Origin: Candidatus Daviesbacteria bacterium RIFCSPHIGHO2_12_FULL_37_16
Lineage (GTDB): Bacteria > Patescibacteriota > Microgenomatia > Daviesbacterales > UBA10151
Direction: 5' to 3'
Length of the DNA stretch: 64,000 bases
NCBI GenBank assembly: GCA_001776785.1
Contig: MFDF01000006.1
Span: forward strand, 16,769 to 80,768
Shown here: one piece after another, positions 4,109-63,033 of the stretch
Layout: every line of letters begins with the position of its first letter
Numbering within the stretch: the stretch's first letter is position 1
The notes under the pieces: model-generated
What the model was told of the DNA's origin: nothing
What the model saw: only the letters and a program-made list of their open reading frames with translations
Databases searched by the model: none
Program-made: the position numbers and the translations under genes

Positions 4109-5058
4109 TGGAAAGGTATTTATTAGCTTTTGATTTTGATAATACAATTGCCCAAACATTTGTTCCAAGTCCAAACAACCTTGGAGTTTTAGAAGTGCAT
4201 GATTATGTGGTTAAAGATATTTTTGGAGAAAAAGGTTTGACAATTTATAAAAATAAACTGCAAGGATTACAGAATAGAGCACCTTTGGAACTTGTGCATC
4301 AACTATTGACACAAGAATGCAGTGAAACTTTAAAAGATTGCGCCTTAGAGTTTCTCAGAACAAAAGCTGAGAGTCTAAATGGACAGGTCCCAAAAGATAA
4401 AGGTATTCCCTTAGATCTTAACCTTAGGCCTTTAGATCAGGTTTTAACAGAGCTATTTGTTCGAACTAAATTATTATATCTTCTTTCTGAAGTTGGCCAA
4501 AAATTTCCGGATAGTAGGATATGGCCACAGCCGACTAACGGATTTTTAGAATTCTGGGAAACTGTCACAACGATTAATAGCCAAAGCGATTTTAGGATTG
4601 ATACAGCTATTATTTCTTCGGGACATGAAAATTTTATCAGAAAAACTTTTTCTGTTTGGGGAATTGATTGCCCGAATATTTTAGTAACTGATGATGATAT
4701 ACGGGCAAAGAAATATCCTCAGCAGCTAAATAGAAGAGTTAAACCTGGTGTATTTCCATTTGCTCTTGCACACCATGAGTGGTTAAGAATGCAAGCGCTT
4801 ACAGATTGCCACTTTGATATTAATTATGCTTCTGCAATAAGAGACAGAATAGTTTACTTTGGAGATGATCCACAAAAAGATGGGATGTTAGCAGAAAATT
4901 CTGGAGTAAGTTATGGTCAGTTTGGTAGTTTAGCATGGCAGCACCTTTATAATAATCAGTTTGCCTTTGATGATTGGTGCGATCCAGCGTATGCTCTTAA
5001 ATCGCACCAAACCTATCTTCAAGTAGGAATGCCTATTGCCGAAGCTTTTATTTATTAA
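4108..5058 (+). CDS. Hypothetical protein with HAD-like DxDxT motif (possible phosphatase/nucleotidase)
   Basis: N-terminal FDFDNT motif only. Sits in the purine operon. Confidence 0.3.
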   Translation: MERYLLAFDFDNTIAQTFVPSPNNLGVLEVHDYVVKDIFGEKGLTIYKNKLQGLQNRAPLELVHQLLTQECSETLKDCALEFLRTKAESLNGQVPKDKGIPLDLNLRPLDQVLTELFVRTKLLYLLSEVGQKFPDSRIWPQPTNGFLEFWETVTTINSQSDFRIDTAIISSGHENFIRKTFSVWGIDCPNILVTDDDIRAKKYPQQLNRRVKPGVFPFALAHHEWLRMQALTDCHFDINYASAIRDRIVYFGDDPQKDGMLAENSGVSYGQFGSLAWQHLYNNQFAFDDWCDPAYALKSHQTYLQVGMPIAEAFIY

Positions 5059-6952: not shown

Positions 6953-7966
6953 ATGTTAAATGGCAAATTAACGATAGTTACTCTGGGATCACATTCTGCA
7001 CTACAAATTCTTAAAGGGGCAAAAGATGAAGGTTTTAAAACTTTAGTTGTAACAACAACTGAGAAAGCCCATTTTTATAAAAGATTTAAATTTATTGATG
7101 AAATTTTATCAATACCTGAATATTCAGATTTTGAAAGTATTGAAAAAAAATTAAGAAACAAAAATTGCATACTTGTTCCCCATGGATCTTTTGTTGCCCA
7201 CTTAGGGCTTGAGATAAATAAGAGAATGTCTTTGCCATATTTTGGGAATAAATCAGTATTGGACTTTGAAGCACATAGGGAAAAACAAAGACAGTGGTTG
7301 AAAAATGCAGATATTAATGTCCCGGCCCAATTTGAAGATGTTGAAAATATTTCTTATCCTGTAATTGTTAAATCTTATGGAGCTGCCGGTGGCAAGGGTT
7401 ATTTTTATGCTAAATCAAAAAATGATTTTAAGAAAAAAATGGGAAACTTTAAAGCCAAACATTATGTTATCCAGGAGTATGTAATTGGAGTAACTTTATA
7501 TATACATTATTTTTATTCTCCATTGACCAGTGAGCTTGAGATATTAAGCATGGACAGAAGATATGAAACAAATGTTGATTCTTTGGGCAGGATTCCCCTG
7601 AGAGGGCAGGTTGGTCTTAAAATTGAACCAAGCTATGTAGTTGTGGGAAACAGCCCGCTAATTTTGAGAGAGTCTTTATTGCATGAAGCTTACGATATGG
7701 GTGAGCGGATTATCAAAGCATCAAAAGAGCTGATTGATAAAAGAGGTCTTTGGGGACCATTTTGTTTAGAGACTGTCATAACAGAGGATTCTGAATTTTT
7801 TGCAATGGAGATATCCTGTAGGATTGTTGCAGGGACTAATTTATTTATTGAAGGGTCCCCATATTCCTGGCTTACATATGATGAACCTATGAGTACTGGC
7901 AGAAGAATTGCCAGAGAGATAAAAATTGCAAAAAAGAAGAATAAATTGTCTCAGGTTTTAAATTGA
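6953..7966 (+). CDS. purP: PurP-like ATP-grasp enzyme (5-formaminoimidazole-4-carboxamide ribonucleotide synthetase family), paralog 1
   Basis: N-terminus IVTLGSHSALQILKGAKDEGF matches the archaeal PurP/ATP-grasp (DUF1297) family. Confidence 0.65.
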   Translation: MLNGKLTIVTLGSHSALQILKGAKDEGFKTLVVTTTEKAHFYKRFKFIDEILSIPEYSDFESIEKKLRNKNCILVPHGSFVAHLGLEINKRMSLPYFGNKSVLDFEAHREKQRQWLKNADINVPAQFEDVENISYPVIVKSYGAAGGKGYFYAKSKNDFKKKMGNFKAKHYVIQEYVIGVTLYIHYFYSPLTSELEILSMDRRYETNVDSLGRIPLRGQVGLKIEPSYVVVGNSPLILRESLLHEAYDMGERIIKASKELIDKRGLWGPFCLETVITEDSEFFAMEISCRIVAGTNLFIEGSPYSWLTYDEPMSTGRRIAREIKIAKKKNKLSQVLN

Positions 7967-9051
7967 TGAATTATACAGTTGCAACAATTGGATCGCATAG
8001 TGCACTTGATATATGCAGAGGGGCCAAAGATGAAGGGTTTGAAACTTTAGTTGTGGCCCAAAAAGGTAGAGAAAAAACTTATGCAAAATATTATAAAACA
8101 CATGCTAATTTGGGATGTATTGATGAGGTAGTAGTATTAAATAAGTTTTCTGATATTTTATACAAAGAGATTCAAGAGAAGTTAAAAAAAAGTAATTCAA
8201 TTTTTATTCCAAACAGGTCTTTTGAGGTTTATCTGGATTTTGATTACTCCTCAATTGAAAAAAAGTTTAATATTCCAATTTTTGGGAATAAGTTTTTATT
8301 AAAAATTGAAGAAAGGTCTGCTAAACCAAACCAATATGATCTTTTGGATAAGGCAAAAATAAGAACCCCTAAAAGATTTAAAGATCCTAAAAAAATTGAC
8401 AGGCTTTGTATAGTTAAAGTTTTAGAAAGCATCAGAGGATTTGAGAGGGCCTTTTTTTTAATAGATAGTTATAAAGATTATCAAAACCAAGTTGAGCAAA
8501 GGTTAAAAAATAAAGTTTTTACCAGTGTGCAGTTAAAAAATGCTGTCATTGAAGAATTTATTACAGGGGTACAAGTTAATTTTAACTTTTTTTATTCACC
8601 TATTGATAAAAGATTAGAGCTTTTGGGAACTGACACAAGAAGACAAACAAACTTAGATGGAATACTTAGAATTCCTGTAGATCATCAACTGAAGATTATA
8701 GAAAAATTAGATGTTAAATATGAAGAGGCAGGACATATTGCAGTGACAGTTTTAGAATCTATGCTTGAGCAGATTTTTGAGATAGGTGAAAGATTTGTAA
8801 AGACCAGTCAAAAACTTTATCCCCCTGGGGTTATTGGACCATTTGCACTGCAAGCTGCAATACTTCCAGGACCTCCAAAAAAAGAAATTGTGGTTTTTGA
8901 TGTTTCCCCAAGAATGCCTGGCAGTCCCGGGATCTCTGCCACCCCCTACTCTGGTTATTTATATGGTGAACCAATTTCTGTTGGTAAAAGGATAGCAATG
9001 GAAATAAAAAGAGCAATTGAAATAGATAGATTAAAGGAGATTATAACTTAA
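7963..9051 (+). CDS. purP: PurP-like ATP-grasp enzyme, paralog 2 (start overlaps the paralog 1 stop)
   Basis: VATIGSHSALDICRGAKDEGFETLVV gives the same family signature. The ATGA overlap implies translational coupling. Confidence 0.65.
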   Translation: MMNYTVATIGSHSALDICRGAKDEGFETLVVAQKGREKTYAKYYKTHANLGCIDEVVVLNKFSDILYKEIQEKLKKSNSIFIPNRSFEVYLDFDYSSIEKKFNIPIFGNKFLLKIEERSAKPNQYDLLDKAKIRTPKRFKDPKKIDRLCIVKVLESIRGFERAFFLIDSYKDYQNQVEQRLKNKVFTSVQLKNAVIEEFITGVQVNFNFFYSPIDKRLELLGTDTRRQTNLDGILRIPVDHQLKIIEKLDVKYEEAGHIAVTVLESMLEQIFEIGERFVKTSQKLYPPGVIGPFALQAAILPGPPKKEIVVFDVSPRMPGSPGISATPYSGYLYGEPISVGKRIAMEIKRAIEIDRLKEIIT

Positions 9052-19056: not shown

Positions 19057-20784
19057 TTATTTCTTAAACTGCAACTTATACATCTCTTTTAATTCTTTGA
19101 CTGTTGTAGCGTCCTCAGCTTGTTTATCTTTTTCCCTAAATTTAACAAGCCTTGGGAAGCGCAGGGCATAGCCCACACCAGTTTCATCTTTGCCTGCAGT
19201 GTGGGTTGGGGACCTTGTGATTTCATCTGCTAAAATTTCTATAACTATTTCTGGGGCAATCCAGACAGATGGGGTCATAATAGAATTTATCCTGGCAGGC
19301 TTTTTATTAACTTTAATTTTGTCTGCCCGCTTGTGAATCTCCCTCCATTCTTCATCTGTTAAACCTGTGCCAATTTTTGAAACAGTTACAAATTCATCTT
19401 TATCTTTATCATAAACTCCAACTAAAAGTGCGCCTGCACCAAATTCTGCCCTTTTTCCTCTGCCAAAGATATAACCTAAAATTACACAGTCCACTGTGTC
19501 TTTTAATTCACCTGCAGAATGCCTTTTTTGTTTGACCCAGTTAAAATTTCTGGCACCTGCTTCATATTTTGAATCAGGCCTTTTAACTATTAAACCCTCT
19601 AAACCTTCTGAGATAGCTTCATCAAAAAGAGCCTGGATCCTTTCCGGCTTATCTGTAATTTCCCCGGGTTCTGCAATTAAAACTTCATTGCCATCAATAA
19701 CTTTTTCCAAAACTTTTATCCTTTCTGAAACCGGCTCATCCATTAAGGAACTACCATTTAAAAACATTACATCAAAGACCATGGCTTTTAAGGGCAGCCT
19801 TTTAACAGCTTCTTCTATGCCATGCTTTCTTCTTCTTTGGGTTGTTTCCTGGAATGGCAGGAATTCTTCTGACTGCGGGTTAAAGGCTAAGGCTTCTGAG
19901 TCTAAAATTGCAGTCTTGGCTTTAACCTGACTAATAACCCCTTTAATAATATCTGGAAACATTGGGGTGGTTTCTTCTAAATTTCTGGAAAAGAGTCTGA
20001 TATTATCCCCATCTTTGTGGATCTGGACCCTAAAGCCATCAAACTTTTTCTGGACATGGGCTGAGCCATCAAACTTTTTTATAATAGCTTCTGCATTAGG
20101 CAGCCTTTCAGCAAGCTGCGACCTAATAGGCCTGCCTACTGTAACATCTAATTTTTCTACACCCTTTAAACCATCTTTCCAAAGGGTTTGGCCAATTAAC
20201 CCCAAGTCTGAAACTTTGTTGTATGCCCCCTCTAAAAGTTTTCTTTTGGACTTATCCCCAAGTTTTGTGAGGGCAAAGGCATCCAAAATTGTTGGGTCCC
20301 CTATTCCTAACCTTGAGGTACCAAGTGGGACTCTGACTAAATGTTTTGCCTCAATTCCCGATGACTTTTCCAGTAAATTAGTTAGGGCAGATATTTTATT
20401 TTCTACTGTTCCATCACCTGAAAATTTGGCAATTTTTAAAAGGGAGTCAAAAATTTCTTTGATAGATTGGTCTTTACTCTTTTTATTGCCAGCCAGGTCT
20501 GCTGCAACACTCCCTAAGTCCCCTACTTTGCCATACATTTTAGTAATATCTTCTAAAGGTTTCCCATAAACCCTGGACATGGCTTTGGCAACAGATTTTT
20601 CTGCCATACCAATCTCTATTGGCTCATAAAAAGGTGCTACTCTGCCCTGGAGAAGATAGGAGATTATAGGAATTTCTTCTGCACCTGCTTTTTTAAAAAG
20701 TTTTGAGAGAATATCAATTAGGGAAAGCCTAGAGGAAGTACTCTCCAGTTTTTCAAAATATTCAGATAATTGTTTAAAAGTCAT
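19057..20784 (-). CDS. lig: ATP-dependent DNA ligase (archaeal/eukaryotic Lig-type)
   Basis: KFDGFRVQIHKDG adenylation motif with an N-terminal DNA-binding domain. 575 aa. Confidence 0.85.
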   Translation of the reverse strand: MTFKQLSEYFEKLESTSSRLSLIDILSKLFKKAGAEEIPIISYLLQGRVAPFYEPIEIGMAEKSVAKAMSRVYGKPLEDITKMYGKVGDLGSVAADLAGNKKSKDQSIKEIFDSLLKIAKFSGDGTVENKISALTNLLEKSSGIEAKHLVRVPLGTSRLGIGDPTILDAFALTKLGDKSKRKLLEGAYNKVSDLGLIGQTLWKDGLKGVEKLDVTVGRPIRSQLAERLPNAEAIIKKFDGSAHVQKKFDGFRVQIHKDGDNIRLFSRNLEETTPMFPDIIKGVISQVKAKTAILDSEALAFNPQSEEFLPFQETTQRRRKHGIEEAVKRLPLKAMVFDVMFLNGSSLMDEPVSERIKVLEKVIDGNEVLIAEPGEITDKPERIQALFDEAISEGLEGLIVKRPDSKYEAGARNFNWVKQKRHSAGELKDTVDCVILGYIFGRGKRAEFGAGALLVGVYDKDKDEFVTVSKIGTGLTDEEWREIHKRADKIKVNKKPARINSIMTPSVWIAPEIVIEILADEITRSPTHTAGKDETGVGYALRFPRLVKFREKDKQAEDATTVKELKEMYKLQFKK

Positions 20785-39802: not shown

Positions 39803-40582
39803 CTATGGCAATGTCTGTCTTTGAGATTTGTAATCGTTCCATTTGTCATCACCACCTCTCAGAAGTGAAGTTAAACTTACTTTTTTAGCCATTAAACAAA
39901 GAATGTTTGGATAACTTTTTTCTCTGGGAAGAATTGGGTAGAAATCTTTTTGGGAATATTTATTATTTTTGCCTTTTGAACTTAAGAGGAAACCTTTTTT
40001 AACCAGTTTAAAGGCAGAGATTTCTTTTGATAGTTTTTCATTTTTACTTTCCCTTAGTAAAACATCAAACACTACAAAATATTCCTTATTTTGATCCTCA
40101 ACATAATTTTTAAGATAGTCCTCAATGAATTTTTTAACTTCTTTTTTTGTACTCTCTGATTTTCCTCCAACTTCAAGAGAAATTCCTAAATCCACATGAT
40201 CAATTAAAGACTTTCCTGAGGCAATGCTATTTTGCATGTAAACCACTTTTTTTGTATTAAGTTTATTGATTAAAGTTAGGTGGTTGGGAGTTAGTTTGGT
40301 TGTAATAATAAAAAGTTCTGAAGGGTCAGTTGCTGTATGAAAATCTAGCACAGCCTCATATTTTTTAAGCTGTTTTAATAACTTTGAAGCTAATTTTTCC
40401 TCTTTTGTACCTTTAGGATTGCCTGGGAATGCGCGGTTTAAGTCACTTTCTATAAACCTGACATTATTATCAAAGGCTTCCTTATTTGCTATTAATAATT
40501 TGAATTTTTTAAAATATTTGTTTATAACTTTGTAGGGGGCTTTTTCTCCACCGTGCTGACAAACAACAAAAATTGTATTCAT
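39803..40582 (-). CDS. Succinylglutamate desuccinylase/aspartoacylase (AstE/AspA) family zinc hydrolase
   Basis: QHGGE...DLNRAFP...DFHTA motifs. Confidence 0.45.
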   Translation of the reverse strand: MNTIFVVCQHGGEKAPYKVINKYFKKFKLLIANKEAFDNNVRFIESDLNRAFPGNPKGTKEEKLASKLLKQLKKYEAVLDFHTATDPSELFIITTKLTPNHLTLINKLNTKKVVYMQNSIASGKSLIDHVDLGISLEVGGKSESTKKEVKKFIEDYLKNYVEDQNKEYFVVFDVLLRESKNEKLSKEISAFKLVKKGFLLSSKGKNNKYSQKDFYPILPREKSYPNILCLMAKKVSLTSLLRGGDDKWNDYKSQRQTLP

Positions 40583-42058: not shown

Positions 42059-42730
42059 TTACTTGTCAAGGGTGTTTAAATATTGGGCACAGAGGCCTGG
42101 AGTGCGGGCAATGATAAAAACTGCATTGGAAAGTTTCGGATCCCAACCAAGGGTACAGAGTACAACTGCTATAGCTGCATCTATATTTAAAGGCAGTTTC
42201 TTGCCTTTTTGAGCTTCCATTTCCTTCTCCAGATCCCTGGCAATATTTATAAATTTATTATCCATATTAAACTCAGACATTTTCTCAAAAATTAATTTGG
42301 TCCTTGGGTCTTCATCTTTGTAGATCCTGTGGCCCAAGCCTGGCATACGCTTATCATCTTTCAAATACTCATCAACTAAATTGTTAATTGGTAATTGTTC
42401 ATTGTTAATTGAATAGAGAATTTCCATGCAGGGTTCGATTGCTCCACCATGGGAAGAGTTTATTTGCAAAATTCCTGCTGCAACTGATTCTGAGATATTT
42501 TTTCCATCAAGAGAAGCCTGGATTGTGGCTACTGCTGAGGGTGTTTCTGCCCCATGATCTATAGATAAATTTAAGATAAGTTCAAAGATTTTAAGTTCAT
42601 TCTCAGAAGGAGTTTTTTCTGAGAGCATTTCAAAGATTAATTGAGCAAAAGAAGATTTTTGGGAGACCAAAAGGTGGTCTTTATCCCCAAAATATGACTT
42701 GAGCTCTTTGTGCTTAACAGTTTTAGCCAT
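42059..42730 (-). CDS. Citrate synthase-like domain protein (citryl-CoA lyase-like)
   Basis: HGGAIE and GLGHRIYKDEDPR correspond to the citrate synthase catalytic His blocks. At 223 aa it is too short for a full citrate synthase, like the Ccl/AclA C-terminal domain. Confidence 0.5.
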   Translation of the reverse strand: MAKTVKHKELKSYFGDKDHLLVSQKSSFAQLIFEMLSEKTPSENELKIFELILNLSIDHGAETPSAVATIQASLDGKNISESVAAGILQINSSHGGAIEPCMEILYSINNEQLPINNLVDEYLKDDKRMPGLGHRIYKDEDPRTKLIFEKMSEFNMDNKFINIARDLEKEMEAQKGKKLPLNIDAAIAVVLCTLGWDPKLSNAVFIIARTPGLCAQYLNTLDK

Positions 42731-42782
42731 GTTTTATGAATTTTCAATTTTTAATTTTAAATTTGAATTCAAATTGTAAATT

Positions 42783-43688
42783 TCAAATTTTAAATTGTAA
42801 AGCCTTTTTTAGTAATCCTGCTATTTGGTCAAAATCTTCAACAACTAGAACACCACTCTCCTTAAGAACCATTCTCTTGTGGTCTGGTTTACCTCTTTCC
42901 CCTTCAATTATTGCACCTGCATGGCCAAATTGCACCTCTGAAGGTAAAGTCATTGTGAACTCACCTGCAATAAATGCTACTATAGGTTTTTTAATCTTTC
43001 CAGCTTTGACCATTTCTGCTACTCTTTCTTCATAAGTTCCACCCAGTTCTCCAAAAATAACAGAAGCTTGAGTATTAGGATCATCTTCAACTGCCATTAA
43101 AAAATCTGCAAAATCTGTGCCTGCAATCCTGTCCCCACCTATTCCTAAAGCATATGAAACACCCAAACCATTATTTCTTAAGTGAAGACCAATTTCACTG
43201 CTCATGCCTCCTGATTTTGAGATAATACAGATATTACCTTCCTTAAAAACCCTGTCAGGGTCTGCCCCACCTATTGAGCCTATTTTTAGTTTTTTTGCAG
43301 GATTTATCAGGCCCACAGAAGAAGGTCCAATAATATTTGCTCCCTTTTCTTGTGCCAGAGCATAAATATATGCAGAATCAGAAGTAGGCACTTTTTCTGT
43401 GAATATCAGCAAAAATTTGATTCCAGCCTCTAAGGCTTCCACAGCTGCAGCTTTTACAAACAGTGGTGGCACATATATTACAGTTGCATCAATCTCACCA
43501 AATTTCTCTGACAATTCTTTTACAGAATTAAAAACAGGCACACCTAAAACATCAGTGCCTCCTTTACCTGGGGTTACTCCTCCAACTACTTTTGTGCCAT
43601 AGCTTAACATGGTTTCCAAAGCCTTTGAGCCCTCTGAACCAGTGATACCTTGGCCAATTAATTTAGGATTATCAGGTAAAATTAACAT
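42783..43688 (-). CDS. Succinyl-CoA synthetase alpha-like / citryl-CoA synthetase small subunit-like (CoA-binding, phosphohistidine)
   Basis: GITGSEG...GTKVVGGVTPGKGG...GHAGAI phospho-His loop. Confidence 0.7.
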   Translation of the reverse strand: MLILPDNPKLIGQGITGSEGSKALETMLSYGTKVVGGVTPGKGGTDVLGVPVFNSVKELSEKFGEIDATVIYVPPLFVKAAAVEALEAGIKFLLIFTEKVPTSDSAYIYALAQEKGANIIGPSSVGLINPAKKLKIGSIGGADPDRVFKEGNICIISKSGGMSSEIGLHLRNNGLGVSYALGIGGDRIAGTDFADFLMAVEDDPNTQASVIFGELGGTYEERVAEMVKAGKIKKPIVAFIAGEFTMTLPSEVQFGHAGAIIEGERGKPDHKRMVLKESGVLVVEDFDQIAGLLKKALQFKI

Positions 43689-43769
43689 CGTATAAAGTTT
43701 ATCGGTTTCGATGCCCGTTTGGTTTAGGGGTTACGTTTAACGTCCAACTCCCTTACGATACTGGCTTCG

Positions 43770-44924
43770 TTACCCATTTCCTCCTAACTTTTCAGCATAT
43801 TCTTTGGCAAGCTTAACAATTATCTCTGCTGAGGCTGGAATTGAGGTGTCCTCACCATATAAATGCAGATCAAATTCTTTAACTTTTTTAAGCATTTCAA
43901 AAGCTTCATCATCCCTTGGTCCTGCCCTTCTTATGACTATTGGATATTTGGGATTAGGTTCAATTTTTTTCAGGGCATCAATTATGCCAGATAAAGTTTC
44001 ATAGATATCTGTAAAGTTAGCCAGGGCCCCTACTATCCAGAGACCATTTAAATTGGGTTTGTCTAAAACTATTTTAGTTAACTTCTCCACTTTTTCCCTT
44101 GGTGGGTTGCCTGAATATTCTGTAAAGTTTGCAGGCTTGCCACCTGCATTTAAAAGTGCATCCATGGCTGTGATTGAGGCTCCTCCTCCTGAGGCTAAAA
44201 TTGCAATGTCCCCATCAAAGTCAAAGTAAGTTGAGCCTGCAACACCCCTGTAGTCATTTTCATCAATTTTTTTAGCTTCTATCTCATTTTTAGTTGGAGT
44301 GTAGCCTGCAACAGAGCGGGGGGGGTAATCCTTCCAGGCTTCATGCCTGCCAATGGCAGTATCATCTAATTTTATTTTTGCATCCAAAGCTATCCAGCCA
44401 TCTTTGGTTTTTACAAGGGGATTAATTTCTAATAAAAGCATGTCTTGTTCAAAGAAGAGCTTGACCAGCTTATTTACTATTTCAGTTATATCATTTGGGT
44501 GTGCGACCGCACACTTTAGTGATAATGGGTCCACTGGATAAACTTGCACTTCCTTTTCTTCTATTCCTGTTCCCCCAGCTTCTGAGAAGGTTAAAATAGG
44601 AGATCTTGAATCTGTGTCATAGGATAAAGAGAGGTAATATTCTTTCTCAATCTCTACCTTTTCTTCTACCAAAACCTTTTCCACCTTTTCCTTATTAATT
44701 ATTTTTCCCAACAAATTTGAAATTTGAAATTTGAAATTTGAAATTTCGTCGCAGACGACTATTCCTCCAGCATCTGCCCTTTTGCCTGAGAGGACCTGAG
44801 CTTTAAGGACAACAGGATACTGCAGAGCTCTGAGCTCAGAGCTCTGATTGAATAGTTGGGAGGCTGGGACTTTGATGCCTGCATCAGCTAAAAGCTTTTT
44901 TCCTTCAAATTCAAAGAGGATCAT
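43770..44924 (-). CDS. Succinyl-CoA synthetase beta-like / citryl-CoA synthetase large subunit-like (ATP-grasp)
   Basis: N-terminal ATP-grasp and C-terminal GDIAILASGGGASITAMDALLNAGGKPANF ligase-CoA domain. Confidence 0.7.
   Translation of the reverse strand: MILFEFEGKKLLADAGIKVPASQLFNQSSELRALQYPVVLKAQVLSGKRADAGGIVVCDEISNFKFQISNLLGKIINKEKVEKVLVEEKVEIEKEYYLSLSYDTDSRSPILTFSEAGGTGIEEKEVQVYPVDPLSLKCAVAHPNDITEIVNKLVKLFFEQDMLLLEINPLVKTKDGWIALDAKIKLDDTAIGRHEAWKDYPPRSVAGYTPTKNEIEAKKIDENDYRGVAGSTYFDFDGDIAILASGGGASITAMDALLNAGGKPANFTEYSGNPPREKVEKLTKIVLDKPNLNGLWIVGALANFTDIYETLSGIIDALKKIEPNPKYPIVIRRAGPRDDEAFEMLKKVKEFDLHLYGEDTSIPASAEIIVKLAKEYAEKLGGNG
44713..44747. repeat. Perfect heptanucleotide tandem repeat (AAATTTG)x5 inside the sucC-like CDS
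   Basis: Read directly. 35 bp, not a multiple of 3. The same AAATTTG/AAATTTC motif recurs in the AT-rich 42731-42782 intergenic region. Confidence 0.6.
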
Positions 44925-45657: not shown

Positions 45658-46341
45658 TCATCTGATTTTTTTTATACTTAATTTAACAAACCCTAAAATT
45701 ATCAGGTCAATAATTAAAGGCAGGCTTAAAAAAAGGTTGGCTTTTTTTAAGACCTCTACCATAGTTTGACCCCAGCCTGAAGATAAAATTGTATTAAAAT
45801 CCAAAAGTCCAACATAATAAAAAGCTATTAAAATTGCAAAAAGGATGGCAAAGACCATTAAAGTCCCTTCCATGTCTTTTTTGGAAGAAAACATAGTATT
45901 TGAGACTATAAAAATTAAATAAAACATCAAAGCCCAAACCCAGATAGATATTCCAGAAGAATTAGTAATATACCAGGAGATGCCAATTATTAAGCTTAAA
46001 CCTACTAATACAGGTGCTACTCCAATGATTGTCCTTCTTAAGGGGTCAGTTTTTTGAATTTGGGCACTACCCAGCTTTACCCCATCTTCCCTTATTTCAG
46101 GCATGAACTCAATATCAGATGACTCAACAAGCATCATGCCTGCTACTATGACATGGGCCAGCTCATGAATAATTGTTCCAGGCAAAAATAAAAAGGCTAA
46201 AAGACCAATTGTTTTTTTGTGGGAGTGGGTTAAAAAATAAAAAAGTGTCCCTAAAGATTTTAATAAAAGTTTGGAGACAAAATATATTAAAAAAAGCAGG
46301 ATAAAAAAGAGAGTTATCTGGATTGGGGTAGAATCCAACAT
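45658..46341 (-). CDS. Polytopic membrane protein with HExxH motif (putative membrane metalloprotease)
   Basis: TIIHELAHVIVAGMM lies within a TM-rich 227-aa protein. Confidence 0.35.
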   Translation of the reverse strand: MLDSTPIQITLFFILLFLIYFVSKLLLKSLGTLFYFLTHSHKKTIGLLAFLFLPGTIIHELAHVIVAGMMLVESSDIEFMPEIREDGVKLGSAQIQKTDPLRRTIIGVAPVLVGLSLIIGISWYITNSSGISIWVWALMFYLIFIVSNTMFSSKKDMEGTLMVFAILFAILIAFYYVGLLDFNTILSSGWGQTMVEVLKKANLFLSLPLIIDLIILGFVKLSIKKIR

Positions 46342-46831: not shown

Positions 46832-49800
46832 ATGGAGGGATCTGCCGAAGTTAGTTCTTCACCACCGCCTGCTGCAGAAACAGGGACAAGGCCTGAAGCT
46901 CGGGTAAAGGATACCCGCGAGCAAGTCTTAAATGCCTTTAACGGGGCATTAGACATTCTTGAAAATACTCCGGAAGATAAATTAACTACTCACGAAAGGG
47001 CTGGTAAAAAATTAATAAAGGAGGTCAAAGCTAAAACTTTAGACCAGGATAAGACTACATTTAGGAATAGGTTCAAAGATGCAGCTGGAAATGAATATTC
47101 ACAGATGGAGTCTGTGCCTGTAGATGACCTGATTGATTTTTTGACTGAAAGGATAAAAAGCAATGATCTATCTGAGCAACAATTACAGGATTATAGAGAT
47201 AAAAGAGCTGTGCTTATTAGAAACAGCAAGCCCTATTATAGACTGGGCAGAGGCAACCCATTAAGGCTTGATGCCCGAGTTGACCAGGAATTAAAAAGAT
47301 TAGAAGAGGCAGGATTAACAACTGGTGATGGTGCAGTAGATAAGGAAGCAGCTGGAGCAAGCCTAACCAAGAGGCGCGAGCTCATTTTGCCAAGGGTTGA
47401 CAGAGGAACTGAGCCACCCCCTGTAGAACCTCCACCACCTATAACTGAACCTCCTGAACAACCACCTATAGAACCACCCCCTCCTGTGGAACCACCACAA
47501 CCACCTCCTACTGCAGGTGAAGTTATGAGAGAGCTTTTAGTTGCTAATGGAACTTTGCAGGTTGGAAGAAGGGCAGCTGAGACAGCAGAGGTGCAGCTTA
47601 GAAATGAACTTAGAAGAGGCCAATGGTATGAATTTTGGCATTGGCCAAGAAAAATAGGAATGAGGGTTGCAGAACAATTTCATAGACAAAATTATATTGA
47701 GAGAGCAAGAGCAGCTATGCTTGAGCACAATAATACACTTGGGGATTTTGATGTTGTCCATAATGTTGCAAGAAATGCTCAGGCAAATATTGATCAGGAG
47801 AGAGCAGAAGGTAAGGCTAAAGTTGCCCAAATAAAATCTGGTGATCTGATTGCTGGTCAAAATGTAGTTGAAGCTACAGGTGAGCTTAAAAACATGATGA
47901 TAAATGATATTTTAAGGCCAGTTGTTGAAGGAAGGGTGACTGAGCAGGGCCAGATTCAGCAGGCTTTAAGGGATTTTGTCCAAAATCACCAAGGAGACCT
48001 GCAGGTCCAGGCTGTTTTTGGCAGGGATGCAACCCAATATGGAAGACTAGCTGAATATTTTGCATCAGATTTAACAGAGACAGCTGAACTTGTCAGATCT
48101 GACATTGAAGCTCACAGGTATGCTATAGACCAGCTTAGTCAGGTAGTAAAGATAAATTTGGCAAATACTTCATGGGCAGCAGAAAGCCAGGCTAACTTTA
48201 ATGCAGTAGATAGGGCTGTAGCCTGGGCAGAATCCCATCAACTGCGCGGCTGGCTTCTAAACCCAGCCACTATTGGAGCTGTGGCCTCTTTGGCTTCATT
48301 TGGAATAAGCAGAGCATTGGGAGCTGGGTCTGCTGCTGCAAATATTATTGCACCAGGAGCAGGAATGATTGCTGGTGCAGCAGTTGCAGGAGTAAGGAGA
48401 AGTTATGACTTAAAGGTGGACCGGGCTGCTGATCAGGTTGAGGAAACATATAATGGACAAGTTCCAGCTCAGGGAGCACCAAGAAGGGAGGCTTTAAGAG
48501 AATTTAGATACAATACAGCTTCAGTTAGAGATTTAATTAATGGAGGTGGGGATGAGCTTTTAGGCGGGGGCAGAAGATTGAGCATGGATCAGCTTTTAAC
48601 TCAGGATCTGTCAGATGGGCAAAATGATAACAGAGAAGCTGTTGTCAGAAGAATTTCTGAGATTAAATCCAGGCTTGATTTTTCTGCAACTGAACATGTG
48701 GATTTAGTGACTTTTGAAGCCAGAGGAAAGGTTGAACAAGGCAGAATGCAGCTTGTCCAGGAGCGGGCAAGGGCAAGGATTGCATTAAGAAATGCCGGGA
48801 TGCTTGATGATGAAATTTTAACTTTAGAGACCAGGTTGACAGGAGAGTGGAATGAGAGGTTTACCCAAAATAGAGAGCAGCAGGATCACAGATTCCAGCT
48901 TTACAGATTAAGGAATGCCGGGGGGGCTGCTTTGTTTGGTGCAGCTGTTGGACTGGCTGGAGGGTTGGCAATTCAGCAGGGAGAGGCCTGGATTGGCAGG
49001 GCTGTGCCAGGGTTGTCTGAGGCTCCAGTTGTGGGGGCACTTTTTGGAAAAGGCCAAACCAGGATTGAGGCAGCTTTTGGCATAGCAGGGCCTACTTCTC
49101 CTGAGAGGTTTAATGTGTTTGGAGTTGATTTAAATGAGGCTTTTGATAAGCCTAAAAACTTTGTGATGAAAAACCCTAACACTGGTGAGGAGTTTTGGAT
49201 GGCAATCCACCCTGAGGATATCAATAAAACAAGGGAGATAACTTTTCTGGATACTAATGGGAATAAGCTTGATGGGCCCGCCATGTGGCTTGAAAAGAGT
49301 GATGATGGCAAGGTGAGTATTATTGGGGCTGGGGACACAAATTTGATGCCTAAGCAAGTCCAGGAGCTGGTTGGGGGCTGGGACAAGAATACTACTGAAA
49401 CCCACAACTTGAGAAGCTATATGAAGTTTTTAACTAAGGGTGGAGTTGAGAATACCTCTGATGAGGTAGTCGAATATGGGAATTTTAGTTTGAACTCACA
49501 TGATGTGCATGAATCAATTTTATTAAATGATGAGGGCAAACCATATGATGTGTGGGCACAGGAGGCTGGGAGGCTAAAGCCAGATGGAACTCCTGAGGTT
49601 GGGAAGATGTCTGTGACCTTACTCCCTACCAAAACCCAATTTCATGGATTTTTAAGGGAGGATGGGTCATTTGATGTTGATCCTAAATATTTTGTAGATG
49701 GAAATTATAGAGGTAATGCAGATATAAACCCCACTGATTATCAGGATATGCTTGATAATTTAAAGGCTGAGGGTTGGGGTGTAGATACTGGAGGGGTAAA

Positions 49801-52156
49801 TGGGGACCATATAAGCGCACCTGAAACATTTGAATATACCCCACCAGAAGTGGAAATAAATGAAGCTCCAATAATTCCAATACCATTTGCCCCAAGACAC
49901 CCACTGGAACCATTAATAATTCCCCGCCCGCCGGAAAACCCATACTACCTTTTTGGTTATGAAATTTTTAGGATGCCTGATGGTTCAATTGGAACTCTTT
50001 CAGATTTTATGCGCATAAGATCAGATGAAGCTAGAAATAGAGTCCCAACAAGAGAAGGTGAGTCTGAAGGTGAGCATGCGCTGGCAACAATCAGAGATGC
50101 TTTTGACAATGCAGACAGGGTTTATATTGACCTTTCTGGAGCAATTGGAGATGCTATTATAACTTCAGCTTACATTGATGGAATAAGAAAGCTTAATGAG
50201 TCTGAAGGAAAAGATAGAAAAATAACTTTAATTGCGACTCCTTTAATAGAATCTCTGCTTAGACCTACAGCAGATAAGTATGGTTATGAACTAATAGAAG
50301 CTCCAAGAGGCGAAGGGTTTGATAAGGCCAAGTCTTTGATTGATGAGCGGGATGAACAAAATCCACTGGTTTTGGATTTTGAACACTATACAGGAATGCC
50401 TGAGATAGATACCTTGCCTAAAAATGGTCTCGTGATAAAGGATCTTTTTGCATCCTCAGTTGTGATGTATGACCAGCAAAGATCTGGTAATAATAGGTTT
50501 ACAGCTTTCTTTTCAGATCTCTTAAGTATTCCTGCGGATCAAAGGGTTGATGTTGCACCAAGAATTGAGCTTCCTGAAAATAGTGAGGAGATTTACCAAA
50601 GTTTGGTGGAAAGATTTAGAATTGATAAAAATAAGCCACAAATCACCATAATTTTAGAGTCCAGCCACAAAATGAAAAAGTATTCTTTGGATAATTGGAG
50701 GGATGTAATGGATAGACTTTCAAGGGATATTCCTAATGCAGAATTAAATATTATCTATAATCCAAGAAGTCCGGAATATGATCCTAATAGATTAAGAGAG
50801 ATATTTAATGGAATCCCCAGGTCTAGATTTGTTGGTGGAGATTTGGATGAAATGGCAGTACTTCTTTCTAAACAGCAGCTGGTAGTCTCTAACGATACTG
50901 GATTAGCTCATGTGGCTGCAACTCTAGAGGGTGGTCCAAGGGTACTAACTCTTCATGTACCAGTCTTTCCACCTAATGCATGGGTTACTAATTCTAACAG
51001 ACATGTTGGGCTTCTTCCAAGGAATGAGAGTTTAACAAATGATTTTAATTCTGAGGAAAGTGATGAGTCTAAGAAGTGGATAAATAAGATAACACCAGAA
51101 GAAGTTGTCAGAAGGGCAGTTATGATATACCAAAATAATCTTACATCTCCCCCTTCTGTGGAAGAAACAACAGACCCTGTAACTCCACCACCTGCACCTA
51201 GAGTTAGATTGGCTACTCCTACTCCAGAAGAGGAAGATATATCACCTTCCAGGTTAGAACAGTTGAGAAATAATGTTAGTGATTTGCGGGCTAGGGCTGC
51301 AGCTGCATCAGGGCCTGCAAGAAGAGGTTTAGTTGAAAGGTTGAATAGAGCTGAGGAAGCATTAAGTAATGTTCTTAGAAGAAGAGATGAAACAGTTTCA
51401 TCACCTGCCACTGTGCCTGTTCCTCCAACACCTACTCCACCAGAGGCTGCACCAGTCCCTCCTGCACCTGATTTACCATCTCCAGCTTTTAGAAGAACAG
51501 AGGCTACAATTCCTGTGCCACCACCTGCACCAAGAGTTAGAGTTGCACCTGCTCCTGCTCCCACTCTTACTCCTACCAGGGTAGAGACTGCTCCAATTCC
51601 AACACCAGAAACTCCTCCCCCACCACCAGCACCAAGAGTTAGAGTTGCTCCTACAACTACTGTTGAGGCTACAAGTGAAGCATTTGATACAGAAGCGCCT
51701 ATAAGTTCAGGTAATTTATTAGAATCAGTCAATGAAAAACTTACCAACTCTTCTTCAAATCTTGAAACTGTTTTGAGTACTCCATCTGCTTTGACTGAAT
51801 TTTTGAAAACCTTAGAGTTTAATTTCGGAGCTAAATTTAAAGATGCCCAAACTAGTATTTCCGGGCGTCAGATAATAATTAACAATGGAGTAATTGAAGT
51901 GCCTGGAGGTGAAGCTAAATTTAATGGAATACTTGCAATTGATCCACAGGGTAAATTAACTCTTTTGGGAGAACCTAAGATTGATTTACCATTTCATTTA
52001 GGACTTCTTAGAGGGAAAGTTAATGATGCGTTGAAAAATCTAGATCAATCAGTCAGGAGTCAAATAAACAAAAGAATTGATCAAAGCTGGGAAGTGTCAG
52101 GATTTAATATTGACAGTGGGAATTTAGCTGTAGACTTTAGAAGACAAACTACTTAA
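46832..52156 (+). CDS. Giant (1774 aa) multidomain proline-rich protein with an embedded GT9-like (heptosyltransferase-fold) glycosyltransferase domain
   Basis: Single uninterrupted ORF. PPVEPPPPITEPPEQPP linker. Gly/Ala-rich hydrophobic segments at ~aa 520-575 and ~730-750. GT9 signature SGAIGDAIITS...LVVSNDTGLAHVAATLEGGPRVLTLH. Three PPAPRVR(V/L)A repeats. GC visibly higher than the neighbouring DNA. Confidence 0.7.
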   Translation: MEGSAEVSSSPPPAAETGTRPEARVKDTREQVLNAFNGALDILENTPEDKLTTHERAGKKLIKEVKAKTLDQDKTTFRNRFKDAAGNEYSQMESVPVDDLIDFLTERIKSNDLSEQQLQDYRDKRAVLIRNSKPYYRLGRGNPLRLDARVDQELKRLEEAGLTTGDGAVDKEAAGASLTKRRELILPRVDRGTEPPPVEPPPPITEPPEQPPIEPPPPVEPPQPPPTAGEVMRELLVANGTLQVGRRAAETAEVQLRNELRRGQWYEFWHWPRKIGMRVAEQFHRQNYIERARAAMLEHNNTLGDFDVVHNVARNAQANIDQERAEGKAKVAQIKSGDLIAGQNVVEATGELKNMMINDILRPVVEGRVTEQGQIQQALRDFVQNHQGDLQVQAVFGRDATQYGRLAEYFASDLTETAELVRSDIEAHRYAIDQLSQVVKINLANTSWAAESQANFNAVDRAVAWAESHQLRGWLLNPATIGAVASLASFGISRALGAGSAAANIIAPGAGMIAGAAVAGVRRSYDLKVDRAADQVEETYNGQVPAQGAPRREALREFRYNTASVRDLINGGGDELLGGGRRLSMDQLLTQDLSDGQNDNREAVVRRISEIKSRLDFSATEHVDLVTFEARGKVEQGRMQLVQERARARIALRNAGMLDDEILTLETRLTGEWNERFTQNREQQDHRFQLYRLRNAGGAALFGAAVGLAGGLAIQQGEAWIGRAVPGLSEAPVVGALFGKGQTRIEAAFGIAGPTSPERFNVFGVDLNEAFDKPKNFVMKNPNTGEEFWMAIHPEDINKTREITFLDTNGNKLDGPAMWLEKSDDGKVSIIGAGDTNLMPKQVQELVGGWDKNTTETHNLRSYMKFLTKGGVENTSDEVVEYGNFSLNSHDVHESILLNDEGKPYDVWAQEAGRLKPDGTPEVGKMSVTLLPTKTQFHGFLREDGSFDVDPKYFVDGNYRGNADINPTDYQDMLDNLKAEGWGVDTGGVNGDHISAPETFEYTPPEVEINEAPIIPIPFAPRHPLEPLIIPRPPENPYYLFGYEIFRMPDGSIGTLSDFMRIRSDEARNRVPTREGESEGEHALATIRDAFDNADRVYIDLSGAIGDAIITSAYIDGIRKLNESEGKDRKITLIATPLIESLLRPTADKYGYELIEAPRGEGFDKAKSLIDERDEQNPLVLDFEHYTGMPEIDTLPKNGLVIKDLFASSVVMYDQQRSGNNRFTAFFSDLLSIPADQRVDVAPRIELPENSEEIYQSLVERFRIDKNKPQITIILESSHKMKKYSLDNWRDVMDRLSRDIPNAELNIIYNPRSPEYDPNRLREIFNGIPRSRFVGGDLDEMAVLLSKQQLVVSNDTGLAHVAATLEGGPRVLTLHVPVFPPNAWVTNSNRHVGLLPRNESLTNDFNSEESDESKKWINKITPEEVVRRAVMIYQNNLTSPPSVEETTDPVTPPPAPRVRLATPTPEEEDISPSRLEQLRNNVSDLRARAAAASGPARRGLVERLNRAEEALSNVLRRRDETVSSPATVPVPPTPTPPEAAPVPPAPDLPSPAFRRTEATIPVPPPAPRVRVAPAPAPTLTPTRVETAPIPTPETPPPPPAPRVRVAPTTTVEATSEAFDTEAPISSGNLLESVNEKLTNSSSNLETVLSTPSALTEFLKTLEFNFGAKFKDAQTSISGRQIIINNGVIEVPGGEAKFNGILAIDPQGKLTLLGEPKIDLPFHLGLLRGKVNDALKNLDQSVRSQINKRIDQSWEVSGFNIDSGNLAVDFRRQTT

Positions 52157-57101: not shown

Positions 57102-57111
57102 AACTAATATG

Positions 57112-57182
57112 TAGGCCCGGAAGGAATCGAACCTTCGTCATGACTGTATAAGAATCAGGCATTACCATTATGCAACGGGCCT
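57112..57182 (-). tRNA. tRNA with TAT anticodon (putative tRNA-Ile UAU)
   Basis: Minus strand: acceptor AGGCCCG/CGGGCCT, D-arm GCAT-AATGGTA-ATGC, anticodon stem TGATT/AGTCA with loop CTTATAC, T-arm GAAGG-TTCGATT-CCTTC. Confidence 0.55.
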
Positions 57183-60563: not shown

Positions 60564-61061
60564 TCATTTGTGAGAGACAATTTCACCTTCTGTTGGGTAG
60601 AGTGATGGAATTCTAACTGGTTCTAAATTTTTAGTCTGAAAAAAGATCTCTGCAATTTTTTGGGTGTTTTCTAAAAGCTCATTTGCTGCATCCAAATTAA
60701 TTTCCTGTTTAGTTTTTGAGGCTAATTTCATTGTTTTCCAGACTAAATCATGTAAATCTGGGAATTTTTCTAAGTGCTCTTCCTTAAAATAATCAGACCA
60801 TAAAACCTGGAGTTCTCTTTTTAATATTTCTGCATGGTCTTCTTTGACTTTGGTAAGCCTTGAAAGCTGATGAGTGTACTTTTTCTCAGACTGTTCACTA
60901 TCATCCTCCTCATTTAAATCCTGAATCATAGAAGTCATCCTGATTACAGTGTGAGATGCTGTCTGCATGTTGTGTGGGTCATAGATTCCACAGGGGATGT
61001 CACAGTGAGCATAAACTGGTTGTGATGGAAGAATTGAGAATAATGAATGAAGGATATTCAT
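60564..61061 (-). CDS. sodN: Nickel superoxide dismutase precursor
   Basis: Propeptide followed by the HCDIPCGIYDP nickel-hook motif. Confidence 0.8.
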   Translation of the reverse strand: MNILHSLFSILPSQPVYAHCDIPCGIYDPHNMQTASHTVIRMTSMIQDLNEEDDSEQSEKKYTHQLSRLTKVKEDHAEILKRELQVLWSDYFKEEHLEKFPDLHDLVWKTMKLASKTKQEINLDAANELLENTQKIAEIFFQTKNLEPVRIPSLYPTEGEIVSHK

Positions 61062-62103: not shown

Positions 62104-63033
62104 CTATTTTAAATTTTCTAGGTAGTCTTCTACTTCCAGGGCGGCTTTGGTGCCTGCACCTGCGGCTGTGACACCTTGGCGGTATTTGTGGTCTGAGACA
62201 TCCCCTGCTACAAAGACTCCATCTACTGAGGTGTAGATTTCATCTGTTACTAAAATATAACCTTTTTCATCCAGATCTATCTGGCCTTTTAGAAAACCTG
62301 TATTTGGTTTGTGGCCAATGGCGACAAAAACCCCATCAATGGGCATTTGGGAGATTTCACCAGTTTGAGTATCTTTTAATTTAACTCCTGTAACTTTTTG
62401 ATCTCCCAGGATCTCTTCTATAACTGTATTAAATTTAAATTCCACATTTTCTTTGGATTTAACCAGCTCTTCTAAAGCAGCCTGGGCGCGCAAGCTGTCA
62501 CGGCGGTGCACGACAGTCACTTTATTTGCAAGCTTAGATAAATGCTGGGCTTCCCTCATGGCTGTATCCCCTCCTCCAACTACTATTAAATTTTTGCCTT
62601 TAAAGAAAAAGCCATCACAAACTGCACATGCAGATACCCCCTTGCCAATAAATTTTTGCTCAGACTCCAGACCCAACCATTGTGCTGATGCACCTGTGGC
62701 TATTATAATGCTTTCAGCTTTTAGACTACTGCTTTCAGTATTAACCACGAATGGTTTTTGAGAAAAGTCCACAGATACAACGTCTTCTTCAATAAATCTG
62801 GTATCAAACCTACTAGCCTGCTTTCTGATTTTTTGCATCAACTCTGGCCCCTGGATGCCTTCAGGAAATCCTGGAAAGTCATCCACGTCTGTTGTCAGCA
62901 TTAATTGACCGCCAGCTGCCCTGCCTGAAATTACCAGGGGATTTGCCCCTCCGCGGGCTGCATAAATGGCTGCAGTTAAACCTGCAGGACCAGAACCAAT
63001 AATAATAAGCCTTTCAACTTTGGGATTTTCCAT
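62104..63033 (-). CDS. trxB: Thioredoxin-disulfide reductase
   Basis: IIGSGPAG FAD motif, CAVC redox-active disulfide, and NAD(P)-binding GGGDTA. Confidence 0.9.
   Translation of the reverse strand: MENPKVERLIIIGSGPAGLTAAIYAARGGANPLVISGRAAGGQLMLTTDVDDFPGFPEGIQGPELMQKIRKQASRFDTRFIEEDVVSVDFSQKPFVVNTESSSLKAESIIIATGASAQWLGLESEQKFIGKGVSACAVCDGFFFKGKNLIVVGGGDTAMREAQHLSKLANKVTVVHRRDSLRAQAALEELVKSKENVEFKFNTVIEEILGDQKVTGVKLKDTQTGEISQMPIDGVFVAIGHKPNTGFLKGQIDLDEKGYILVTDEIYTSVDGVFVAGDVSDHKYRQGVTAAGAGTKAALEVEDYLENLK

Follow-up and report, generated by a model that had tools for sequence, protein, structure and literature searches.

A predicted citryl-CoA synthetase/citryl-CoA lyase cassette with a short, tail-less lyase in a Daviesbacteria genome

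In Hydrogenobacter thermophilus and other Aquificaceae, citryl-CoA synthetase (CCS) and citryl-CoA lyase (CCL) comprise three separate polypeptides, namely CcsA and CcsB (PDB 6HXQ) and Ccl (PDB 6HXP), and the CCS/CCL pair is usually taken as a marker of the reductive tricarboxylic acid (TCA) cycle in Aquificae and Leptospirillum. The domains of ATP-citrate lyase (ACL; AclB/AclA or ACLY) follow the same beta-alpha-CCL order, with alpha and CCL fused. Here, a stretch of 64,000 nucleotides from Candidatus Daviesbacteria bacterium RIFCSPHIGHO2_12_FULL_37_16 (assembly GCA_001776785.1, contig MFDF01000006.1, positions 16,769 to 80,768 of the forward strand; hereafter the window) was analyzed for a three-gene cassette that resembles the Hydrogenobacter system in both polypeptide number and domain content. 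Its genes are as follows:

44924..43770, minus strand: ccsA-like gene (large or beta subunit), 384 aa, ATG start, TAA stop; identified by open reading frame (ORF), Pfam, PDB comparison and tree
43688..42783, minus strand: ccsB-like gene (small or alpha subunit), 301 aa, ATG start, TGA stop; identified by ORF, Pfam and indels
42730..42059, minus strand: ccl gene, short (tail-less) form, 223 aa, ATG start, TAA stop; identified by ORF, fold and residues

The genes are separated by gaps of 81 nt (ccsA-ccsB) and 52 nt (ccsB-ccl) and form a compact cassette. An earlier note, made from the sequence alone, had described three adjacent, co-directional ORFs of 384, 301 and 223 aa, and these were found at exactly the coordinates it gave, all on the minus strand. 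The motifs it had named were likewise located, GHAGA as ‘QFGHAGAII’ (H256) in the 301-aa protein, and ‘SSHGGAIE’ (H94) and ‘GLGHRIYKDEDPR’ (H134 and R143; GHRIYK..DPR) in the 223-aa protein.

As a whole, the data are probably best explained by a CCS/CCL module for stand-alone cleavage of citrate to acetyl-CoA and oxaloacetate. The large ATP-grasp subunit and the small CoA-binding, phospho-histidine subunit would together constitute CCS, the 223-aa protein would be CCL, and the module would represent a split, two-enzyme counterpart of ACL. In a Microgenomates/Daviesbacteria-like bacterium of the candidate phyla radiation (CPR) that appears to be TCA-less, this would provide a non-cyclic route from scavenged citrate and would not be part of a reductive TCA cycle. 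The acetyl-CoA formed would be used for acetylations, for example in amino-sugar and cell-wall precursor synthesis, and oxaloacetate would be a likely precursor of aspartate. The mechanism of the cassette enzymes is almost certainly conventional; the missing active-site arginine of the lyase, described below, and the stand-alone context are real puzzles.

Assignment of the cassette to CCS/CCL is not new. GenBank lists identical proteins, which come from an uncultured groundwater bacterium, under the names ‘Citryl-CoA lyase’ and ‘citryl-CoA synthetase large subunit’, IMG also uses CCS/CCL names, and the same locus occurs in assembly GCA_001777025.1. Many other database homologs carry succinyl-CoA synthetase (SCS) or citrate synthase (CS) names, and according to a 2022 preprint, sequences from the CPR and DPANN that bear SCS or CS annotations belong to the CCS and CCL clades. 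A search of the literature on the CPR, Patescibacteria and Microgenomates for citryl-CoA or citrate lyase returned only a passing mention in one preprint, and no paper was found on the function of CPR CCS/CCL or on a tail-less lyase variant. Three features appear to be undescribed: the conserved subfamily of tail-less lyases, the wide and strictly collinear occurrence of the cassette among TCA-less genomes of the CPR and DPANN, and the repeated presence next to it of amino-sugar genes that consume acetyl-CoA.

Pfam analysis of the 384-aa protein revealed ATP-grasp_2 (2e-28) followed by Citrate_bind (PF16114; 5.5e-25, 88 bits against a cutoff of 26.8), a domain specific to ACL and CCS, which is the domain order of the CcsA family (KO K15232). 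When all PDB chains were searched with phmmer, the closest was H. thermophilus CcsA (6HXQ_B, 181.9 bits), compared with 123.8 bits for Chlorobium AclB and 123.5 bits for the best SCS-beta chain. Trees were constructed by neighbor-joining with 100 bootstraps and few outgroups (E. coli K-12 proteins for SCS and CS), with some references rebuilt from PDB alignments, and are indicative rather than definitive. The large-subunit tree grouped the CPR proteins with CcsA, AclB and ACLY, apart from SCS-beta, with 96% bootstrap support, the branching order among CcsA, Acl and CPR sequences being unresolved.

The residues that distinguish citrate from succinate binding were also of the ACLY type. The list of ACLY catalytic-center residues and the role of F347 were taken from the literature, and the human ACLY sequence used for numbering was checked and is 100% identical to the PDB chains. 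Residues G246-248, S271/G272, A302-N303-F304-T305 and R333 of the large subunit correspond to G281-283, S308/G309, A345-N346-F347-T348 and R379 of ACLY, respectively. By contrast, E. coli SucC has G-A-G in place of GGG, V323-R324-C325-D326 in place of A-N-F-T, and L349 at the position of R333 (V or L in SCS), such that the ‘RR’ of the large subunit is R(V/L) in SucC. N303, T305 and R333 are invariant in 76/76 CPR and DPANN large subunits, from genomes with tail-less and tailed lyases alike.

The 301-aa protein contains CoA_binding (7e-25) and Succ_CoA_lig/Ligase_CoA domains and a phospho-histidine loop, as expected of the CcsB family (KO K15233). Its H256 is equivalent to H760 of ACLY and H247 of E. 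coli SucD and is invariant in 72/72 small subunits, in which E98 (ACLY E599) is also invariant; the phospho-histidine and this glutamate are among the features shared with SucC/SucD, to which the two cassette subunits are related by superfamily and subunit architecture. S159-G160-G161 corresponds to ACLY S663-G665, the S-G-G being found in CcsB and ACLY, whereas SCS has S-G-T. Two indels, ‘IGSIGGA..DP’ and ‘FTMTLP-SEVQFGHAGA’, are common to the 301-aa protein, CcsB and ACLY and are missing in SCS-alpha. The PDB scores of the small subunit were about equal for archaeal SCS-alpha (244.4 bits) and CcsB (238.6 bits), and its tree was unresolved, with support of only 34-58%. Taken alone, the alpha subunit would be separable from SCS-alpha only by the two shared indels, not by score or tree.

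In the 223-aa protein, the Citrate_synt domain (9e-37) covers only positions 140-346 of the 357 in the profile, that is, the C-terminal two-thirds. The closest PDB chain was H. thermophilus Ccl (6HXP_A, 143.7 bits), the best CS scoring 68 bits. An AlphaFold2 model (pLDDT 92.9, pTM 0.89) predicts the compact CCL fold of the Ccl family (KO K15234; NCBIfam PRK06224 subfamilies) without the large-domain insertion of CS, and in Foldseek it superposed on Ccl 6HXP with a TM score of 0.91 and a root mean square deviation of 2.1 Å. The top 40 PDB matches were all CCL modules, with TM scores of 0.85-0.91 for CCL modules and 0.67-0.76 for citrate synthases. The short lyases and Thermocrinis Ccl, a reference of confirmed identity, formed one clade with 99% bootstrap support, apart from both the CCL modules of ACL and CS.

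Seven of the eight residues on a published checklist of the CS active site are retained in the lyase: H59, H94, H134, R143, D184, F205 and R209, equivalent to H229, H264, H305, R314, D362, F383 and R387 of E. coli CS and invariant in short and long forms of the lyase. Relative to the two closest relatives, the ratio of nonsynonymous to synonymous substitution (dN/dS) was 0.06-0.13 for ccl and 0.05 for the alpha gene; dS is near saturation in these comparisons, yet pN lies far below pS. Given this strong purifying selection, the 223-aa protein is not a pseudogene.

NCBIfam was less decisive. The top matches of the large and small subunits were SucC (195 bits against a cutoff of 370) and SucD models (282-285 bits against 336-353), respectively, and the cassette proteins were far below the cutoffs of the SucC, SucD, malate-CoA ligase and acetate-CoA ligase models. 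The top matches of the 223-aa protein were CCL models, the best being NF004869 (155.7 bits against 212), and it fell below the cutoff of every CCL and CS model.

Domains, closest structures, residues, indels, trees and the fold model thus agree with the proposal of the earlier note that the locus matches the CcsA/CcsB plus Ccl system and not canonical sucCD. Of the subunit phylogenies that the note had called for, those of the beta subunit and the lyase fell on the CCS/CCL side and that of the alpha subunit did not resolve. The contrary outcome it had named, in which the subunits branch within SCS and the 223-aa ORF is a decayed CS, was not observed in the trees or in the dN/dS values.

Comparison with Hydrogenobacter Ccl reveals marked differences in the lyase. 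The window protein is 223 rather than 259 aa in length and only ~36-41% identical, its N terminus is divergent (‘MAKT.TH...FG’ in place of ‘T.IS....IRGY’), and it is without the 30-45-residue C-terminal tail ‘EE..KP(F/V)RR..EY.G’ and the conserved arginine therein. With ACL, whose chemistry it is predicted to share, the cassette has in common the Citrate_bind domain and the A-N-F-T loop, an equivalent of R379, the phospho-histidine loop ‘SEVQFGHAGA’ and the IG..GG insertion. It differs in that alpha and CCL are unfused (separate ORFs, the first ending in a TGA stop before the 52-nt gap), in that a CS-type histidine (H94) is kept where ACLY has Phe935, and in that the lyase is only 19-22% identical to the CCL modules of ACL and has no arm with an R1085 equivalent. 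Whereas the lyase has the seven core residues of E. coli GltA, it is without ~150-200 residues of large-domain helices, R407 and the C-terminal arm of CS (~360-430 aa).

Alignment of lyases revealed two forms, a long one of 239-264 aa (including sequences from Curtissbacteria, Magasanikbacteria, Thermocrinis and a DPANN archaeon) and a short one of 219-232 aa. The long-form ending, ‘PGLVAH..EE...KP(F/V)RRL..E..EY.G’, aligns with ‘ARPRQLYTG’ of E. coli GltA and ‘LYRHPWDDISY’ of ACLY. Its tail arginine corresponds to E. coli R407, pig R421* and ACLY R1085, and the column is 97% arginine in 32 long-form Ccl sequences. [quoted passage not shown] The arginine is missing in all 39 short-form sequences (the window protein and 38 others), which stop 11-21 residues past R209 (14 in the window protein) with the ending ‘...PGLC(A/G)(H/Q)(Y/F)LNN’. 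The tail-less length is kept in ~39 species. The predicted lyase would therefore be a derived short form without the arm that supplies this arginine to the partner active site in CS and long Ccl, and because of the arginine loss its substrate affinity or specificity may differ.

No replacement for the tail was found. A hidden or frameshifted tail was absent from all frames downstream of the ccl stop, and the downstream 92-aa ORF is not conserved, with one weak match in 80 related loci. The alpha and beta subunits have no compensating extension, their core lengths being identical in tail-less and tailed genomes, and the cassette contains no conserved extra gene, the inserts between genes in some loci being unrelated to one another. 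In the short form, Ile70 stands in place of an otherwise invariant arginine and ‘NN’ replaces the ‘EE’ that follows the last helix; it is as though the arm, when lost, had taken its docking site with it. H7, P64, I90, M102, Y106, R135 and C192 are invariant in the short form only. The short forms make up one derived group inside the Ccl clade in the neighbor-joining tree, the exact node having only 41% support, and apparently constitute an undescribed short subfamily. Some more distant tail-less sequences were present among 50%-identity representatives, and the tail may have been lost on more than one occasion.

Relatives of the large subunit were found in 330 genomes in a scan of one genome per species, and the loci of the best 80 of these 330 genomes, all of distinct species, were examined. 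Where record names were informative, these were from the CPR (Daviesbacteria, Woesebacteria, Curtissbacteria, Magasanikbacteria, Lloydbacteria, Giovannonibacteria, Jorgensenbacteria, Woykebacteria and others), and one was from a DPANN archaeon. Complete CPR genomes with the cassette include CP066686.1 and OY970314.1. The order beta-alpha-ccl on one strand was observed in essentially every locus with enough sequence, alpha-ccl junctions were short or overlapping in many, and the flanking genes vary between lineages while the cassette order stays. Proteins in which alpha and Ccl are fused also exist in related lineages: P0270 (555 aa) and P0284 (575 aa), both annotated ‘succinyl-CoA synthetase alpha subunit’, have a CcsB-like part 41-43% identical to the alpha subunit of the window and a tailed Ccl part that is 35-38% identical. 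Given these fusions, alpha and Ccl would be expected to act together. The fusions, which are ACL-A-like and lie within or near the CCS/CCL lineage, mirror the fusion that made subunit A of ACL.

Two observations concern the labels under which such sequences are deposited. Many third-party ‘binchicken’ assemblies that carry the cassette are titled ‘uncultured Gammaproteobacteria’, ‘Pseudomonadales’ or ‘Methanosarcinales’, labels that look placeholder or wrong. In complete genomes of Nanobdellota (DPANN), ‘succinyl-CoA synthetase alpha’ was reported in 6/31 Maxwellarchaeales and CS in none (bioRxiv 10.64898/2026.05.13.725050); the Maxwellarchaeales protein could be the same CCS-like family under an SCS label.

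Apart from the cassette, no TCA or reductive TCA gene was found in the window or in the 10 kb beyond each end (~84 kb in all), which bears out the earlier note's remark that none was in view and sets the host, a small-genome CPR bacterium, apart from the autotrophic Aquificaceae. The same region encodes a complete de novo purine pathway, including two aspartate-consuming steps (PurA and PurC), together with methylerythritol phosphate (MEP)-pathway genes, cell-envelope glycosyltransferases and housekeeping genes.

One hint to function was provided by unbiased clustering of the neighbors in the 80 loci. In a Magasanikbacteria-like group, one Jorgensenbacteria genome and one single-cell genome, GlmS, a CofD/YvcK-like gene and a 110-aa GNAT acetyltransferase lie directly before the cassette on the same strand. 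In several other lineages, including one short-form locus, a GlmU-like nucleotidyltransferase/hexapeptide acetyltransferase occupies that position. The loci concerned are as follows:

Loci L054, L062 and L065-L084, and also L030, L046, L055 and L056, same strand as the cassette: GlmS/CofD/GNAT or GlmU-like upstream gene (before position 5001 of the locus in L054, L062 and L065-L084)

These amino-sugar enzymes and users of acetyl-CoA hint at a cassette that supplies acetyl-CoA and whose by-product, oxaloacetate, would go to aspartate; the small GNAT could be a regulator instead. Around the short-form cassette, the only conserved neighbors were the housekeeping genes for TrpRS, DnaG, RpoD, FtsH and a NUDIX protein, together with a HExxH membrane protein, and no conserved metabolic partners were found. 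An AstE/AspA-family (succinylglutamate desuccinylase/aspartoacylase) gene at 39803-40582 on the minus strand, 1.5 kb downstream of ccl, might have suggested a link to acetyl-aspartate, but this was rejected, the gene being syntenic in 0/80 loci.

The activities, direction of flux and physiological role of the cassette are what we infer from the family assignment, residue conservation and selection observed here, and several points weigh against stand-alone citrate cleavage by CCS and CCL. All three proteins fall short of the curated NCBIfam cutoffs, and the alpha subunit is as near to archaeal SCS-alpha as to CcsB by score, with an unresolved tree. N346, T348 and R379 of ACLY are presumably citrate ligands (reportedly so assigned by Sun et al. 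2010), and the residue roles given for the large subunit depend partly on this assignment. The short lyase is without the oxaloacetate-binding arginine of the partner subunit, with no obvious replacement in cis. Neither a citrate transporter nor an oxaloacetate-using enzyme was seen near the operon in the window and 10 kb on each side, and the ~84 kb inspected belongs to a genome that is likely near 1 Mb. The window itself does not have the GlmS/GNAT/GlmU-like synteny, part of which reflects descent within a single lineage. Finally, the reaction energies of CCS, CCL and ACL (-5.9, -2.1 and -8.0 kJ/mol, respectively) are close to equilibrium, and the direction of flux is therefore unreadable from sequence.

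These small energies would permit the same enzymes to run in reverse, with the lyase condensing acetyl-CoA and oxaloacetate and the synthetase freeing citrate with formation of ATP. Such substrate-level phosphorylation would conserve thioester energy in a fermentative cell without CS, and no CS was seen in the ~84 kb. Desulfobacter postgatei is reported to run ACL in the citrate-forming, ATP-yielding direction. ACLY, according to the literature, can form citryl-CoA out of acetyl-CoA plus oxaloacetate. However, neither aconitase, isocitrate dehydrogenase nor a citrate exporter was seen in the inspected ~84 kb, so citrate would be a dead end, and the adjacency of GNAT, GlmU-like and GlmS genes in other lineages fits production of acetyl-CoA better. 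Reverse operation is accordingly considered unlikely.

An equally improbable arrangement is a non-covalent, ACL-like complex in which the short Ccl serves mainly in scaffolding, CoA binding and allosteric regulation, with cleavage taking place on the synthetase. The order of the three genes, collinear with ACL and ACLY, the short or overlapping alpha-ccl junctions in many loci and the alpha-Ccl fusions of related lineages are consistent with such a complex, and loss of the active-site arginine would be tolerated if the lyase site were partly dispensable. Furthermore, Wei et al. 2023 made the case for an allosteric CSH module in ACLY and for an ASH domain that contains the residues for citryl-CoA cleavage. 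The CS-type catalytic residues of the lyase, including H94, are nevertheless invariant and under strong purifying selection, and the proteins group with the free-standing Ccl of Aquificae rather than with the CCL modules of ACL. Aoshima et al. 2004 are cited for CCS and CCL of Hydrogenobacter being two distinct enzymes, each with an activity of its own.

Loss of the R407/R421* equivalent could instead signify that another acyl-CoA is the substrate of the tail-less lyase and perhaps of the entire cassette in its clade, namely a citrate analog without a carboxylate or with a moved one, such as malyl-, citramalyl- or 2-methylcitryl-CoA. This would be in keeping with the clade-specific invariant changes in the short lyase, including I70 for an invariant arginine, and with lyase scores that are all under the curated Ccl cutoffs. 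It is difficult to reconcile with the citrate-loop residues and R333 of the synthetase, which do not vary with lyase form, with the invariance of the other seven CS-type active-site residues of the lyase, and with alpha and beta subunits in which no change of length or architecture correlates with tail loss. A change of substrate is thus judged very unlikely.

An ordinary sucCD pair beside a degraded CS pseudogene, as might be suggested by the SucC/SucD top matches of both ligase subunits, the slightly higher alpha score on archaeal SCS-alpha than on CcsB, and the SCS or CS names of many homologs, is so improbable on the sequence evidence that it was rejected, because the SucC and SucD scores are far short of their cutoffs, Citrate_bind is present, the citrate loop and R333 are unlike SCS, the beta and lyase trees stand against it, and the 223-aa protein has the whole CCL core, modeled with confidence, and is kept at 220-232 aa in ~39 species with dN/dS of ~0.1.

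A bolder proposal can be made for the tail-less clade, which is found in Daviesbacteria/Woesebacteria-type Microgenomates and some Lloydbacteria. After loss of the domain-swapped arm, its arginine and the apparent docking residues, the lyase might be a functionally distinct minimal enzyme that has another mode of assembly, for instance by binding straight to CcsAB to give a non-covalent mini-ACL, or that has another substrate, and the cassette might be the main source of acetyl-CoA for cell-envelope acetylations in TCA-less ultra-small bacteria, fed by host or environmental citrate. This proposal is tentative and, on present evidence, more doubtful than probable.

Two further elements lie beside the cassette on its strand:

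41908-41884, minus strand: terminator-like hairpin with a 10-bp stem (5 GC pairs) and a T-run, ~150 nt past the ccl stop, from a consensus scan
45115-45040, minus strand (as the cassette): tRNA-Met, 115 nt upstream of ccsA

The hairpin is likely the end of the transcription unit of the cassette. It is a pattern match only, of a kind no more numerous in the region than expected from shuffled sequence. A promoter-like site with an extended -10 element is located at 45153-45125, upstream of tRNA-Met, and the cassette and tRNA-Met may be co-transcribed. Upstream of both, at 45658-46341 on the minus strand, is a gene for a 227-aa multi-pass membrane protein with a HELAH (HExxH) motif and no Pfam match; it is syntenic in 8/80 related loci, all eight of the short form. 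The window is AT-rich, as the earlier note had stated, with a GC content of 0.31-0.45, mostly ~0.36.

Several features elsewhere in the window were recorded as observations in their own right:

6953-7966 and 7963-9051, plus strand: tandem PurP-like genes (DUF1246/DUF1297, archaeal-type FAICAR synthetase family)
19057-20784, minus strand: ATP-dependent (archaeal/eukaryotic-type) DNA ligase with all three domains
46832-52156, plus strand: 1774-aa protein with one GT9 heptosyltransferase domain, at residues ~1245-1366, and long low-complexity stretches rich in proline
57111-57182, minus strand: tRNA-Ile with the unusual anticodon TAT (UAU)
60564-61061, minus strand: nickel superoxide dismutase
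62104-63033, minus strand: thioredoxin-reductase-like flavoprotein

The PurP-like pair lies inside an otherwise bacterial cluster (FolD, PurS-L, PurQ, PurA, PurB, PurE, PurC and PurM, with PurF, PurN and PurD just upstream of the window). The gene for the 1774-aa protein reaches a local GC content of 0.45 and is represented by two ORFs in another assembly of the same locus. AUA is normally read in bacteria by a lysidine-modified CAU tRNA. The superoxide dismutase and the flavoprotein are oxidative-stress genes, and the lineage is usually described as anaerobic and fermentative.

The cassette is widespread in CPR bacteria and some DPANN archaea with no TCA cycle in view, and automated carbon-fixation calls made from CCS/CCL genes could therefore mislead. 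Symbiont-like cells that carry it may rely on an outside supply of citrate to obtain acetyl-CoA and oxaloacetate. The collinear arrangement of the beta-alpha-ccl operon and the alpha-Ccl fusions resemble the state immediately before the fusion event from which ACL arose. A natural tail-less lyase would also serve as a test of what the partner-subunit arginine and the C-terminal arm contribute to catalysis and oligomerization, and this bears on the current debate between a catalytic and an allosteric role for the homologous module in human ACLY.

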